NCBI GenBank assembly: GCA_963664405.1
Contig: OY761158.1
Span: 2,560,001 to 2,624,000 of the forward strand
Length of the DNA: 64,000 nucleotides
Origin: Thermoanaerobaculia bacterium
Lineage (GTDB): Bacteria; Acidobacteriota; Thermoanaerobaculia; Multivoradales; Multivoraceae
Direction of reading: 5' to 3'
The position numbers were made by a program, and so were the translations under genes. A model generated the notes under the pieces. That model saw nothing but the letters and a program-made list of their open reading frames with translations. It did not search any database and had not been told where the DNA came from. Below are positions 12,518 through 17,377 of the stretch, one piece after another (position 1 is the stretch's first letter; the number at the start of each line of letters is the position of its first letter).

Positions 12518-14325
12518 TTATCGCGGTATCAGCCAGATCGGAGACGAGAAGGCGCGCTCCTGAATGGTTGCTGCAAGACCTGGTCGAAGGGGCGTACCCG
12601 CACGCATTGCATCCCACGTGGACCAGCGGCAGGTTGGATTCTCCAACGCACGAAGGTAGTAGAAGGCACGTTGATCGCGGTCGAATTCGGGATCGGTCCA
12701 AAGTGTCTGGAGGTGCGCCGCGCCCTTGGCGCTCACGCTGCAGTCGCTGAGATCCACGCGAGCTCCGTTGTCGGGACAACGGTGGTCTCGCGGTCGACCT
12801 CGAGATCGTCCGAGCAGGCGACATCGTAGACACGCTCCTGCGGCTCTCCGTCCTCGATCCAGCCCTTGATCACCTGCACACGCTGGAGCCTGGCGGACTC
12901 AGGGTCCTGGGTCGCCCAGACGAGAAATCGTGGCGCGCCGCTGCGCCGCCCAGCGAGGTCGCCGCCCATCGGCACGCCGTGCTCGTAGGCATTTGCGATG
13001 AGATCGTCGTCCTCGAGCGCATCGTCGTCGAAGTCGTAGCTGCCGAAAAAGCGGACGCGCATTCGCGGCCCAGTGGTGGCGAAGGTCTCTTTGCGGCGGA
13101 ACGCATCGTAGATCGATTCGCGCGTGTTCTCCTCGGCCCACACCCCCGCCAAGCCCGAAGCGCCCCAGGTCGGCATCCTGATACTCATTCCTGTGCGTTC
13201 CGGAGCGTCCTCCCAGGTCGCGGCACCCTCCGGGAGCACCGACCCGCGCCGCTCCGGCGTCCCATCTATGACCCCGCCCTTGCTGAAGAAGGACGACTCT
13301 TGGTACGAGGCGCCCGCATTATGGGTGTCACTGGAGCCGATCAGCCCGAACCGGTAGGGGTTGAAGCCCTCGCTCTCCTCGAGCTCGAGACCGGTGAGGT
13401 AGGCGTCGCGTACATAGCTGCCACGGATCTTCTCGAGCTTCGACGCGGCCGGGCGGAGGAGCTCGATCTCGAAGTCAGCCCACTCGTCGTTGGGGGAGAG
13501 CAGCGGGTGTGTCTCTGAGGTGCCCTTTACCTGCGTGACCTCGACCAGTGGCTCATTGCGCATCCGCAGCTGGGCGTACGCGGCGTCGAAGGGAGCGCCC
13601 GACCGCTGCTGGCGCGCGAACCTGCGGCCGAGGCTCTCGTTCGAGTTGTGGGGGATCGCCAGCGCTTCGATGCCATCTTCGCGTAAGCCATCGAGCCAAT
13701 CCCAGAGATCCTCGGGGTTCGGCGAGTCCACTCGAGAGAAGGGCAGCTCGGGCGCATTCGCGCCCCGGAAGATGACGTTGCGGTGTTGATTTCCCCCGCC
13801 GGGGGACGACGTCGTGTACTCATAGCCGACGAAGGTCGTGAACTTGCCTGGCTCGTAGTGGCGCTGCGCCGAGGCGATGGTCTCCCGCCAGGCAGAACGT
13901 GAGGCCGCTGGGTCGGGGGGATGGTCGCGGAGAAAGCGGCCGCCGGTCGTGAAGGCCACCATTCTCTCGCCGACGGTTTTTGCATCGAGAAAGCGACGGG
14001 CTTCGGGATCTTTCGCCAGAGGATGATCAGGGTCCGACATCGAAGCCCACCCGGCCAGATAGGCGCCGTGGTCGGTGACGGCGTAGAAATCGAGCGGGCG
14101 ATCGAGCTGGATGTCGAAGCCGACTGGATGTTTGATCACCTCGCCGCGGGCATAGCGGTAGGCGTCGTCGGGTGACGCGCGGGTGCCCAAGCTGTACGCG
14201 TCATTCGAAAAGCGCGTATGGATGTGCAGATCGCCGAAGTAGGCGTTTCGCTCCGCACGCGCGTGGCCATAGATGGCACACAATCCACAGACCGTCAGCG
14301 CGACGGTGCGATGGACTTTTCTCAT
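12518..14325 (-). CDS. DUF3604 domain protein (frameshift near 12780)
   Basis: YFGDLHIHT, TDHG, IPHNSN, GSSDTHN; C-terminus YYLRALENPTCRWS in ORF 12518..12757; TGATG overlap with upstream gene. Confidence 0.85.
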
Positions 14326-14975
14326 CAAGGCGTGAGCTCCTCGAGAGCCTCTTCGAGACGCTTGTCCCCATCTGGGCCTGTGAAGCGCCAAACTACGTTG
14401 CCGTCGCGGTCGACCAGCATCATGGTGGGCACCGCGTGTACTTTGAGCGCCGACCAGGCTGACGACTCCTGGTCGTCGAGGAAGATCGGGTAGCGAATGT
14501 CTCGAGTCGTGACAACCTTGCGCACTCTGTCGAGCGCGCCCTCGCCTTCATCGATCGAGAGACCGACGATGCGTAGCCCCTCGCCGCCCTCCTCATAGCG
14601 CTTTTGTAGCTGACGCATGGTCTTCTTGCAGGGCTGGCACCAGGTTGCCCAGAAGTCGAGGATCGTGAGCTCCCCGCCTCCGATGGGAAGAGGCACCACA
14701 TCACCCTCCAAGCTGCGCAGCGCAAGGGCGGGGGTTGCGAAGGGCAGCTCCATCGGCACCCACCAGTCAGGGCTGGCGTCGAACTCGCTCTTGCACTCGT
14801 CCGAACAGAAGTAGTAGTGCTTGCCTTCGTGGGTGCTCATGCCGGCTACTTCTTCGGCTTCAGGCTCGGTGCCGTGGGCGGACTGAGCCGCACACACCCT
14901 GCACACGGCCCTCTCGGGATGCTCAATCGCGTCCTGGCCCGAAGCGACGGCGGCCACGAGAAGACCCGCGATCAG
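14325..14975 (-). CDS. Exported YHS(TRASH)-domain/TlpA-family redoxin fusion; start uncertain (CTG overlapping upstream stop)
   Basis: Hydrophobic N-terminus; CRVC and YYFCSDECK (YHS); LDFWATWCQPC and AVPTMMLVDRDG (TlpA). Confidence 0.8.
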   Translation of the reverse strand: MIAGLLVAAVASGQDAIEHPERAVCRVCAAQSAHGTEPEAEEVAGMSTHEGKHYYFCSDECKSEFDASPDWWVPMELPFATPALALRSLEGDVVPLPIGGGELTILDFWATWCQPCKKTMRQLQKRYEEGGEGLRIVGLSIDEGEGALDRVRKVVTTRDIRYPIFLDDQESSAWSALKVHAVPTMMLVDRDGNVVWRFTGPDGDKRLEEALEELTP

Positions 14976-15625
14976 AACCCCACTGCGAACGAGATGCCCG
15001 GATACTCCAGGTCGACGGCGAGCAGGCTCACACTCCAACGCTCGTGAAAGTAGTTGAGCATCAAGTGGGGCCTGGACCCGTCGGACATCGGACGCACCGA
15101 GAATCGACCCCCCAGCCCGACCTCCATCCCGAACGGCACGTTGAGCCCGCGATCCCATTCGGAGTAGTTGAGGCTGGCGTAACCAGAGAAACGTGAGGTG
15201 CCGAAGCGTTTCGACACCGTTGCGAAATAGGACTGAGTCCCCTCTGGTGAGCCGATGCGATCTGAGCTGGTTCCAAGAAAGACGGCTGGCCGCCCGTCCG
15301 TTTCGGTGAGGAGAAAGAGGCTGAGGAGAGGGTTGACCTCCTCGACATCCGGATTGAACTCGACCCCGGCCTGCAGACGGCGATGAAAGCGATAAGTCGC
15401 CGTTGTACGCCAGCGGGCCCGGTCGACGTCGATGTCCACCCAGCGCCCAGAGACAGTCCACTTGGTGTGAAGTCCGCTCCCCCGGAGCGGCGCGCCCTCG
15501 CCAGGTCAGCCGCTTCACGATGGCGCTGACGAAGGCCGTGGTGGCTTCGTGGGGGTCGGTTGTGGAGCCTCGGCACCCGGCTCGCTGGCTAGTAGAAAAG
15601 CAGTGAGAACCTGGACTCCGATCAT
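14972..15625 (-). CDS. Putative selenoprotein (U37-S-G-U40), exported, beta-barrel-like C-terminus
   Basis: ATG 15625 is in frame with ORF 14972..15439 through TGA codons at 15515-15517 and 15506-15508 with no other stop; SECIS-like hairpin follows; amphipathic strands ending in Phe. Confidence 0.7.
15474..15490 (-). promoter_or_regulatory. Candidate bacterial SECIS hairpin
   Basis: CCGCTCC-GGG-GGAGCGG on the minus strand; loop 22 nt after second UGA and 31 nt after first; G-rich loop. Confidence 0.55.
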
Positions 15626-16243
15626 GGTTCGGATCCTATCGCTCGAGCCTTGATCCCACCAGAGCGGACAGCTCGCTCGGGTCTCACTCCGGTTTTCGGG
15701 CCAGGAAGGCGTAGCCATTGACCTCGACCGTCTAGCCCTCTCCTCGCCCCCGGCTCCTCCGAAGGTGTCTACCGAGGGGCCGATCTCGATGTCGACAAAT
15801 CCCCTCTCCTCGCGCCAACGAGGACTGGAGGCGAGGTGCAGGGCTACTCGGCAATTCCCCAACGCGAGGTACCACCTGAACGGGTATCGGGAGGTCGAGC
15901 CGGTCTCGCTCATTGCCTTAGGCTGCAAGACTGCCGCAGGACTGCCGATTAGCCCTGCACCTGTGTGTGTGTGCGCCGCTCGAGAGTTTCGATCGGTGGG
16001 TCCAGCGCTCGGGCGCCCCCGGCGAGGGTGTGATGCTCGCGGGAAAGCCCTGGGATGGCTTTCTCGCTAGACTTGCAGCGACTCTCTATCAGCCACAGTG
16101 TGCACTTATCCTAAAACGTGACTTTCTTCTTGCCTGGCAAGAGATGTCGCCCTCCGGTGAGGTGACGGCTCCGCGTACCTAGCCTCGTAGCATTCCCTGT
16201 CTTTAAGTGAGGCACATATGACGGTAAATGGAAGTACCAAATT

Positions 16244-17377
16244 ATGAGAGCACCACTGAATAGGGCCTTGATAGGCCAACCAGGCTCAGCCCTGGCACTG
16301 CAGACGCCAGCCCTGGTGCTGGACCTAGAAGTATTCGAGGCCAACATCAAGACAATGGCAGAACATTGCAGCGACCAAGGGATAACATTGCGCCCCCATG
16401 CCAAAACCCATAAGTGCATTGAAATAGCACAACGGCAGATTGCCGCAGGCGCAGTCGGAATCTGCTGCGCAAAATTGGGTGAGGCTGAAGTTATGGGCCA
16501 TGGTGGTATTGAAAACATTCTGATCACATCGCCAGTGGTTGTTCCCGCCAGTATAGACAGATTGATGGCGCTGAACCTCGCCATTTCAGATCTGATGGTC
16601 GTTGTGGATAATGCTGACAATATTGCTGCGCTCTCGGCAGCAGCACAAGAAGCTGAAAAACCCCTGAAAGTTTTTCTGGATCTCGACCCGGGTCTTCACA
16701 GAACGGGTATCAGACCCGGAGAGTCAGCCGTGAATCTGGCAAAGCTGCTACACCAGGATGCCGGCTTCGAATTCATGGGATTGCAGGACTATGCCGGTCA
16801 GCTGATGCACATCGAGGACTTTGATGAACGTCGTAAGGGTTCGCACGTAGTCATGGAAGAGCTTGATGCCATGCGCAACGCCCTTGACGAAATCGGTATC
16901 GAATGTGGCGCGCTGACAGGTGGTGGTACAGGTACTTTCGATATCGATGCTGAAAAGAGCGTGCTGACAGAGTTACAGGGTGGGTCCTACATATTCATGG
17001 ACCGCGAATATAACGAAGTAGGCCGTGAAGGTGGTTTTCCTTTCAAAACCTCTCTTTTTGTGCAGATGACTGTAATTTCAAACAACACACCTAAGCAGGT
17101 CACGACGGATGCTGGTTTCAAGTGTTTTGCCACAGATGCAGATACGCCATTGCTGACATGGGGCGCACCGGCGGGTGCAAGCTATTTCTTCTATGGTGAC
17201 GAGCAGGGCGGCATCACTTTCGAGAACGAAGAAGATCAGCTTGCATTAGGCAGCTGTGTCAGGGCCGAAACGCCGCATTGTGATCCGACCATTAACCTGT
17301 ATGACTATATTCATGTTACCCAGGGTGACACCCTTGTGGATATCTGGCGAATCGATACCAGGGGCCTGTCCGGGTAA
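16244..17377 (+). CDS. DSD1 family PLP enzyme (D-threonine/3-hydroxy-D-aspartate aldolase-like)
   Basis: TPALVLDL, LRPHAKTHKC, GGGTGT, ELQGGSYIFMD, PHCDPTINLYD. Confidence 0.9.
   Translation: MRAPLNRALIGQPGSALALQTPALVLDLEVFEANIKTMAEHCSDQGITLRPHAKTHKCIEIAQRQIAAGAVGICCAKLGEAEVMGHGGIENILITSPVVVPASIDRLMALNLAISDLMVVVDNADNIAALSAAAQEAEKPLKVFLDLDPGLHRTGIRPGESAVNLAKLLHQDAGFEFMGLQDYAGQLMHIEDFDERRKGSHVVMEELDAMRNALDEIGIECGALTGGGTGTFDIDAEKSVLTELQGGSYIFMDREYNEVGREGGFPFKTSLFVQMTVISNNTPKQVTTDAGFKCFATDADTPLLTWGAPAGASYFFYGDEQGGITFENEEDQLALGSCVRAETPHCDPTINLYDYIHVTQGDTLVDIWRIDTRGLSG

Follow-up and report, generated by a model that had tools for sequence, protein, structure and literature searches.

Do the two in-frame UGA codons that lie three codons apart on the minus strand, at 15517-15515 and 15508-15506, end a gene or encode selenocysteine (Sec, U)? 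The window analysed here is a 64,000-nucleotide stretch of the genome of a Thermoanaerobaculia bacterium, and the gene in question occupies positions 14972-15625. From comparison of homologous sequences we hold it to be very probable that this gene is a genuine selenoprotein with a UxxU motif. Its product is predicted to be an exported outer-membrane barrel that carries the motif on an N-terminal arm, and it appears to work with a thioredoxin. The explanation as a whole, including the mechanism proposed below for the barrel and its thioredoxin partner, we regard as likely.

The reading frame

Re-reading of the minus strand gave exactly the frame of a preliminary description made from the sequence alone: it runs from ATG 15625-15623 to TGA 14974-14972, has no stops besides two TGAs at CxxC spacing, and encodes 217 amino acids (aa) with the C-terminus PGISFAVGF. 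From ATG 15625 the N-terminus reads MIGVQVLTAFLLASEPGAEAPQPTPTKPPRPSSAPS, followed by TCG TGA AGC GGC TGA CCT, so that the first UGA (UGA1) is codon 37 and the second (UGA2) codon 40. Open reading frame (ORF) calling with genetic code table 11 returns only a 155-aa piece at this locus, from GTG 15439. The features of the gene, all on the minus strand, are as follows.

14972..15625, minus strand: coding sequence of the putative UxxU selenoprotein, as a read-through translation in a frame that is kept in relatives; includes the stop at 14974-14972
15587..15625, minus strand: hydrophobic, signal-peptide-like segment MIGVQVLTAFLLA, then a Pro-rich linker to 15518
15515..15517, minus strand: first UGA, codon 37, putatively read as Sec; TGA in 124/124 distinct sequences
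15506..15508, minus strand: second UGA, codon 40, putatively read as Sec; TGA in 124/124 distinct sequences
15474..15490, minus strand: candidate hairpin of the Sec insertion sequence (SECIS) type, 7-bp stem and GGG loop, from covariation and published criteria (PMC13188914)
14975..15460, minus strand: predicted 12-stranded outer-membrane beta-barrel domain, residues ~56-217, last residue Phe, from a structural model and its fold matches

The start codon is uncertain. A second possible start, the in-frame ATG 15718, is preceded at 5 nt by GAGG and would lengthen the protein by 31 residues. It appears to suit a signal peptide better than ATG 15625, whose n-region is uncharged, because DRIR then gives a charged n-region before the hydrophobic core. 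Typical signal peptides are found at the same place in the full-length homologs P0021, P0024 and P0108 and in the cysteine forms described below.

Conservation of the two UGA codons

We searched a phylum sample of 301 genomes with the read-through protein and found matches in 26 (25 of 300 without the unpublished genome G049, whose locus was excluded from every alignment), at 35-58% identity; each of the 26 matches contained exactly two TGAs. We also scanned 185,579 species, each represented by one genome; of the 405 stretches matched, 356 were confirmed as relatives, and the best 80 loci of that scan all read TGA/TGA. These 80 come from the Acidobacteriota (Thermoanaerobaculia, Pyrinomonadaceae, Blastocatellia), from the Armatimonadota (Fimbriimonadaceae, Chthonomonadales, Capsulimonadales, Armatimonas) and from one metagenome-assembled genome (MAG) labelled Clostridia. 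An Armatimonadota sample yielded matches in 33 of 251 genomes, and all 28 Sec-type loci among L121-L155 had TGA/TGA; the motif pattern applied to this set missed the Cys-type matches L132 and L133. Pooled and de-duplicated, the loci from Acidobacteriota and Armatimonadota gave 124 distinct 72-nt sequences that align without gaps and in which both TGAs are invariant.

The conserved peptide around the UGAs reads VPS-U-P-x-U-PGEG in the homologs. The residue preceding UGA1 is Ser in 97 of the 124 sequences, with AGY codons in 69 and TCN codons in at least 25, while the PGEG that follows UGA2 is invariant as protein in all 124 and variable at every third codon position. Because Ser is maintained across a switch of codon family and PGEG is maintained with free third positions, the alignment indicates that selection acts on a peptide read in a single frame across both UGAs. 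This peptide lies upstream of every start codon open to the 155-aa ORF.

The locus is covered in four sequencing runs, each from a different study, and all of their contigs there keep both TGAs and the hairpin; at neither site is there a TGG or TGC. Contigs of two runs show no difference from the window at this locus and may be its source. The other two runs carry a strain variant with 26 differences, none of them in the UGAs or the hairpin, and by our own arithmetic seven of its nine in-gene differences, including both of those upstream of the UGAs, fall at third codon positions.

Three database homologs (P0021, P0024, P0108) have W-x-x-W at the motif, which is probably TGA read by genetic code 4 on short contigs. 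Another, P0153, reads AVPA-C-VG-W-PGEG: its Trp is either genuine or a translated second TGA, in which case the protein is a Cys-x-x-Sec intermediate.

Cysteine forms and wider homologs

A family profile run against 1.84 billion representative proteins gave 310 at E <= 0.001, most of them starting after the UGAs. Database homologs are mostly called at 151-173 aa from such post-UGA starts, and in this sense it holds, as had been suggested, that gene callers split the gene. Judged by these sequences the family is widespread and routinely mis-annotated, and no Pfam or NCBIfam model covers it.

We found 48 proteins, of a sister subfamily, in which Cys takes the place of Sec; those with a taxon name come from Fimbriimonadaceae or Armatimonadetes, and PF04945 and PF24273 are present in most of the 48. 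Stand-alone Cys forms (P0176, P0190, P0228, P0198, P0229) consist of a signal peptide and APT-C-AG-C-AGEAR ahead of the barrel, forms of ~400 aa (P0177, P0180, P0196, P0199) have two or three YHS/TRASH modules ahead of the same CxxC, and P0125, of a thioredoxin-fused type, has VPS-C-AL-C without PGEG. In a joint alignment the Cys residues of P0229, P0176, P0190, P0228, P0198 and P0125 fall in both U columns. The Cys loci L128-L131 use the codons TGT/TGC and have no common hairpin at the SECIS position, although four loci make a small control. As genes, then, the homologs do not begin downstream of the UGAs, and TGA or Cys is conserved at both positions. More distant barrel homologs (P0181, P0187, P0226, P0227, P0255, P0152, P0193, P0241) have Lys-rich or other N-termini without a Sec or Cys arm; the barrel therefore exists also without the chalcogen motif.

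A SECIS-type hairpin downstream of both UGAs

The hairpin CCGCUCC-GGG-GGAGCGG (15490-15474) has 7 bp and a folding energy of -11.5 kcal/mol for the 17 nt alone. It starts 15 nt past UGA2, and its loop begins 22 nt after UGA2 and 31 nt after UGA1, precisely where the preliminary description had put it. That description had also called for a check against bacterial SECIS elements. As given in a 2026 review (PMC13188914), these have a loop of 3-9 nt, an upper stem of 4-16 bp, a G in the first two loop positions, a distance of 16-37 nt from the UGA and a minimum free energy (MFE) of <= -7.5 kcal/mol; the window hairpin falls within all of these bounds for both UGAs.

It is by comparison with relatives that the hairpin rises above chance. 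With columns 33-40 paired to columns 44-51 in all 124 sequences, without subsetting, 66.9% of cells pair, compared with 51.5% in shuffles. Changes occur on both sides in seven of the eight pairs, compensatory cells number 131 where 50 are expected, and the covariation score (0.359 vs 0.162) was reached by none of 500 shuffles. When the partner columns are slid by 1-3 positions as a control, pairing falls to 34-57%; the first 25 loci fit the same structure with 85.5% pairing. The relatives have 8-bp stems and loops of 3-5 nt, and the stems are unrelated between clades (CCGCUCC/GGAGCGG in the window, GGCAAUCC/GGAUUGCC, GUUCCUCG/CGGGGAAC and CGCCGCUC/GAGCGGCG elsewhere), their coupled changes appearing as coupled amino-acid changes (RAVRGTA with RAIRGIA). 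A G at column 41 is invariant in the 124 sequences, and takes loop position 1 or 2 in types that use this register (register 1).

Selenocysteine machinery of the genome

The genome is one contig of 6.78 Mb and contains all four genes, selA, selB, selC and selD, for which a check had been proposed. SelA scores 343.6 bits and SelB 339.8 bits, and there is one canonical tRNA-Sec with an 8-bp acceptor stem, a 5-bp T stem and a UCA anticodon. The best SelD (362.1 bits; C1:388007-388930, locus L010, outside the window) has one in-frame TGA, and selenophosphate synthetase would therefore itself be a selenoprotein here. A second SelD-like gene, without a TGA, scores 242.9 bits (C1:565727-566650). Among relatives, SelA is present in 26 of 26 phylum carriers and in the five Armatimonadota carriers tested (5/5), as is selC in the latter (5/5).

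Recoding by way of SECIS and SelB could also end in Cys, if one or both UGAs were read by a selC-like tRNA(ReC) to give CxxC or a mixed motif. Such tRNA(ReC)-like genes are enriched in genomes with UXXU hydrogenases, including 5/5 Armatimonadota (PMC13582414), and one Armatimonas carrier of the barrel has an 86-nt tRNA-Cys(GCA) that scores 41.9 bits with the tRNA-Sec model. In the window genome, however, aragorn calls one tRNA-SeC(UCA) and one ordinary 75-nt tRNA-Cys, and a search with the Rfam tRNA-Sec model gives a single selC (72.4 bits), the next hits coinciding with aragorn tRNA-Ser calls; the weaker hits examined in the other four Armatimonadota carriers are likewise tRNA-Ser. Since no second selC-like gene was found in the genome by these two tools, we consider Cys decoding here very unlikely. 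The Armatimonas gene (L171:2158-2243) stands in a cluster of eight tRNAs in a MAG, and from its sequence may be a tRNA(ReC)-like gene. Two long aragorn 'tRNAs' of the window genome, Gln-CUG (96 nt, C1:235223-235318) and Pro-CGG (97 nt, C1:2783550-2783646), have poorly paired stems and were judged to be false positives rather than ReC or allo-tRNAs.

Selenocysteine or termination?

Several observations weigh against the selenoprotein. First, the 66-nt fold of the window sequence taken singly is not above chance (z = -1.10; 31 of 200 shuffles are as good), the MFE prefers another fold, and at a genome G+C of 62.6% the hairpin alone is unremarkable. An Rfam scan of 14000-17000 at E <= 10 found no matching family, the hits being eukaryotic, at chance level and none on the hairpin strand. 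Second, in about half of the sequences (the Pyrinomonadaceae type, with the peptide RAVSGAG) the hairpin is a different, interrupted one (register 2). Its support comes mostly from conservation: a single pair is compensatory (CG 55 / UA 20), and the covariation score, attained by 141 of 500 shuffles, is not significant. By our own reading, the column-41 G closes the stem of this hairpin, and its loop CGUGA has G second. Third, the literature covered gave no experimental proof of one SECIS serving two UGAs in any bacterium; for UXXU hydrogenases with one SECIS-like hairpin, a single element serving both codons has been raised as a possibility (PMC13582414). Fourth, C-terminal halves are disrupted or split in three of the 26 phylum loci (L037, L038/L040, L039). 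Finally, SelA is present in 241 of the 301 phylum genomes (a tally that includes the unpublished G049, G152 and G024), and being so common in the phylum, its presence in all 26 carriers lends weak support.

Were the TGAs true stops, there would be either a 155-aa gene starting at GTG 15439 or a pseudogene, with the frame before it and the hairpin both coincidental. This is what table-11 calling and most database entries imply, and the insignificance of the hairpin in the single sequence agrees with it. Yet the 155-aa product would then be an outer-membrane barrel without a signal peptide. Selection acts at the protein level in one frame on either side of the UGAs, all 124 distinct sequences, from two phyla, retain TGA-x-x-TGA, the hairpin covaries, and in the Cys forms the frame runs straight through. 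The comparative data contradict termination, which we regard as extremely improbable. The preliminary description had named homologs, Sec machinery and sequencing reads as what could refute a UxxU selenoprotein, and each of the three turned out in its favour.

Predicted fold of the barrel

The protein had been described as beta-barrel-like, and structure prediction makes this specific: the C-terminal ~160 residues are predicted to form a 12-stranded outer-membrane barrel. An AlphaFold2 (AF2) model, computed from an alignment of 22 sequences that begins 12 residues ahead of the first U and runs to the C-terminus, C standing in for U, has 12 long strands (model residues 32-192), a mean predicted local distance difference test score (pLDDT) of 90.2 and a predicted template-modelling score (pTM) of 0.84. 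The best structural matches are all 12-stranded outer-membrane barrels, led by the COG4313 channel 4rl8 (Z 16.3, root-mean-square deviation 2.8, 166 residues aligned) and followed by FapF 5o65 (Z 16.2; Foldseek E 3e-5), KdgM 4pr7 (Z 15.6) and autotransporter beta-domains (Z 13.6-14.1); NanC 2wjr (Z 13.3), a designed 12-strand barrel (Z 12.9) and PcoB 7pge (Z 8.7) are weaker. Of the 80 loci, 79 end in F and one in W; of the 26 phylum loci, 20 end in F and two in W.

The matched barrels (4rl8, 5o65, 4pr7, 2wjr, the autotransporter beta-domains and 7pge) thus share the predicted fold and the C-terminal aromatic residue with the window protein. In contrast, they belong to no common sequence family with it, they are less compact (~160 residues for 12 strands here), and, judged by entry titles, they have no Sec or Cys pair on an N-terminal arm. 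Neither the arm nor the barrel of the window protein (P0001) has a Pfam hit at E <= 1 or an NCBIfam family at E <= 0.01. The arm is modelled with pLDDT 71-88, and several structural alignments begin at model residues 4-16, where the matched proteins have in-pore segments; the model thus hints that the arm sits in or at the barrel lumen.

An autotransporter-like arrangement, in which the barrel exports the N-terminal part (a fused thioredoxin in relatives, the short arm here) to the surface and UxxU is the in-pore linker, would account for some of these features. The order of signal peptide, N-terminal domain, linker and C-terminal 12-stranded barrel is that of type Va, and in the matches to autotransporter beta-domains the aligned model range starts at residues 13-16, which is UxxU. 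The other 12-stranded barrels match better or equally, however (16.3, 16.2, 15.6), no Pfam autotransporter model hits, the model has no long helix before strand 1 but only H44-47, and the thioredoxin is a separate protein in the window. TlpA-type thioredoxins moreover take their electrons from inner-membrane CcdA/DsbD and are hence periplasmic, and we judge export to the surface to be quite unlikely.

A probable thioredoxin partner

The gene that follows the barrel gene on the same strand encodes a candidate partner.

14325..15038, minus strand: partner gene, putative exported protein with a YHS-like domain and a TlpA/ResA-like thioredoxin (WCQPC), from Pfam, NCBIfam and neighbourhood

Its start is uncertain; TTG 15038, which lies within the end of the barrel gene, would give an n-region RRR and the core VLIAGLLVAAVA. 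The protein contains WCQPC and scores above the Pfam cut-offs for Thioredoxin_8 (54.3 bits), AhpC-TSA (53.6 bits) and Redoxin (50.3 bits). Because it stays below the NCBIfam cut-offs for the ResA subfamily (75.2 vs 170 bits) and the TlpA equivalog (47.1 vs 230 bits), we take it as a member of the superfamily, not as an equivalog.

Of 104 loci, 98 have a thioredoxin-like relative on the strand of the barrel gene, 87 of them upstream and 11 downstream. A motif-pattern tally over 105 loci, 16 of which were missed by the pattern or have short flanks, counts at least 72 in which the partner precedes the arm as an in-frame fusion. It is a separate downstream gene in 10 loci (the window, L015 and Armatimonadota) and a separate upstream gene in seven, the arm in these seven being joined to a YHS-like domain. 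Where the two are fused, the thioredoxin domain retains a WCxPC of its own, and ~40-100 residues separate its end from UxxU. Domains of the YHS/TRASH kind occur in the window partner, there as a YHS-like candidate, in pre-arm fusions of Thermoanaerobaculia and, in two to three copies, in Cys forms. In the flanks of the 104 loci no other neighbour is common to the lineages, and for this reason we take the functional unit to be the barrel with its arm plus the YHS/thioredoxin protein. That the barrel protein and the thioredoxin are functionally paired appears highly likely to us.

The longest fused forms (L020, L022, L023, L027, L031, L032, L036) have an extra N-terminal domain of ~130 residues with the Cys pattern QVVCC-x-x-CW...KSC/AVDC, which matches no Pfam family.

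Possible functions

The signals for recoding are present in the sequences, the fold in a predicted model and the partnership in gene fusion and adjacency, and the mechanism we propose is as follows. SelB and tRNA-Sec would decode both UGAs as Sec, directed by the single hairpin after the second. In the mature protein, Sec-Ser-Gly-Sec and the invariant PGEG after it would lie on an arm N-terminal to a 12-stranded outer-membrane barrel, and the protein would form a two-part envelope module with the YHS/TlpA-like thioredoxin. The latter would keep the diselenide/diselenol of the arm reduced, and the reduced arm, at the periplasmic mouth of the barrel or in its lumen, would bind or reduce a soft, copper-like metal ion, with the YHS/TRASH domain and His-rich linkers as possible metal hand-over sites. 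By analogy, the protein probably offers, at an outer-membrane channel, a diselenol site that a reductant keeps reduced and that receives a soft metal or a redox substrate.

We favour metal handling over pure redox chemistry only tentatively, at somewhat under an even chance. Two observations count against it: the YHS-like domain (PF04945) of the window partner scores 28.7 bits where the cut-off is 30.3 (E 1.3e-6), and His-rich linkers are found in some fused forms only, 47 of the 72 having no His in the last 60 residues. The arm might instead be a pure redox centre, working without a metal ion, that passes electrons from the thioredoxin to a substrate in the periplasm or at the surface, such as a peroxide, a disulfide or a metalloid oxyanion. 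Consistent with this, many fused forms do without the linker, the partner's best scores are with AhpC-TSA, Redoxin and ResA models, and most catalogued selenoproteins are redox proteins (PMC13188914). However, YHS/TRASH metal-binding domains recur in all three architectures, and a soluble redox reaction needs no outer-membrane barrel. It is the recurrence of these domains that makes us lean towards metal handling, and the pure redox centre seems to us rather unlikely.

A more elaborate, and in our view improbable, version of the mechanism places the arm in the lumen as a selenol-lined filter or gate, with a channel that is opened, closed or metal-loaded according to a redox state set by the tethered thioredoxin. 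In fused forms, termination at UGA1 would release a soluble thioredoxin and read-through would tether it, so that the balance between the two products would depend on how much selenium is available.

Relation to known systems

The nearest functional parallel is TlpA of Bradyrhizobium with ScoI and CoxB, in which a periplasmic thioredoxin reduces the Cys pairs of copper-binding proteins. As there, an exported WCxPC thioredoxin is paired here with a protein whose x-x-spaced chalcogen pair would need reduction, and there is a link to a metal domain. Unlike there, the client would be an outer-membrane barrel with Sec in the place of Cys, and the two proteins are often fused; the partner's score lies far under the TlpA equivalog cut-off, and no cytochrome oxidase context was seen in the neighbourhoods.

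Bacterial selenoproteins have been catalogued mostly as soluble redox enzymes with one Sec (PMC13188914). In the review's table of 119 families UxxU is given only for Prx-like oxidoreductases, NF041115 and FmdB-family proteins, and the outer-membrane selenoproteins are the GSU2204-type barrel and the FCYXU TonB receptor only (PMC13188914). The barrel family is not among these 119, and the listed families do not match P0001 in NCBIfam release 20. Searches of the full text of papers, supplementary candidate lists apart, found no description of the family.

The NF041115 protein is likewise bacterial, has two Sec in UxxU and is thought to bind metal, but it is a small metal-binding domain and not a barrel; with 0 NCBIfam matches at E <= 0.01, P0001 is not a member. 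In the Prx-like/SelL selenoproteins (PMC2398784, PMC9312934) UxxU replaces CxxC and is diselenide-capable, as here. There, however, it is the active site inside a thioredoxin fold, whereas here it lies on an arm outside any such fold: P0001 has no AhpC-TSA (PF00578) or thioredoxin hit, and the fused thioredoxins keep their own Cys motif. The GSU2204 family (an MtrB/PioB-type barrel, NF041027) and the TonB-dependent receptor with the FCYXU motif (NF049945) are also Sec-containing outer-membrane barrels (PMC13188914), but with one Sec and much larger barrels, and neither model matches P0001. Finally, the UXXU Group 4 [NiFeSe] hydrogenases, which likewise occur in Acidobacteriota and Armatimonadota, resemble the present genes in having two UGAs three codons apart and a single SECIS-like hairpin whose loop has G at its first two positions (PMC13582414). 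They differ in being cytoplasmic Ni-binding catalytic subunits with Sec and Cys types mixed in close clades, while all 124 distinct UGA-bearing sequences of the barrel family are UxxU.

If our reading is right, it adds an outer-membrane barrel family whose UGA-bearing members all carry two Sec, and which would be a natural test case for one SECIS decoding two UGAs. It also points to an undescribed envelope module (barrel plus YHS/thioredoxin) in the Acidobacteriota and Armatimonadota, abundant but poorly studied soil phyla. For annotation, the effect is that the barrel gene is truncated, fused forms are split and the UGAs are sometimes rendered as Trp.

Neighbouring gene and other observations

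Directly downstream of the thioredoxin gene, and overlapping its end, lies a DUF3604 gene (12733-14391, minus strand; PF12228, 599 bits) with a signal-like N-terminus. We considered it as a part of the module, but a relative occurs within the flanks in 0 of the 104 loci, and it probably does not belong there.

Within the thioredoxin gene, numerous contigs of other organisms pile up at window positions 14624-14660 in all four sequencing runs, to a depth of 86-258 compared with 3-12 elsewhere, so this stretch of ~35 nt is evidently near-identical across many organisms.

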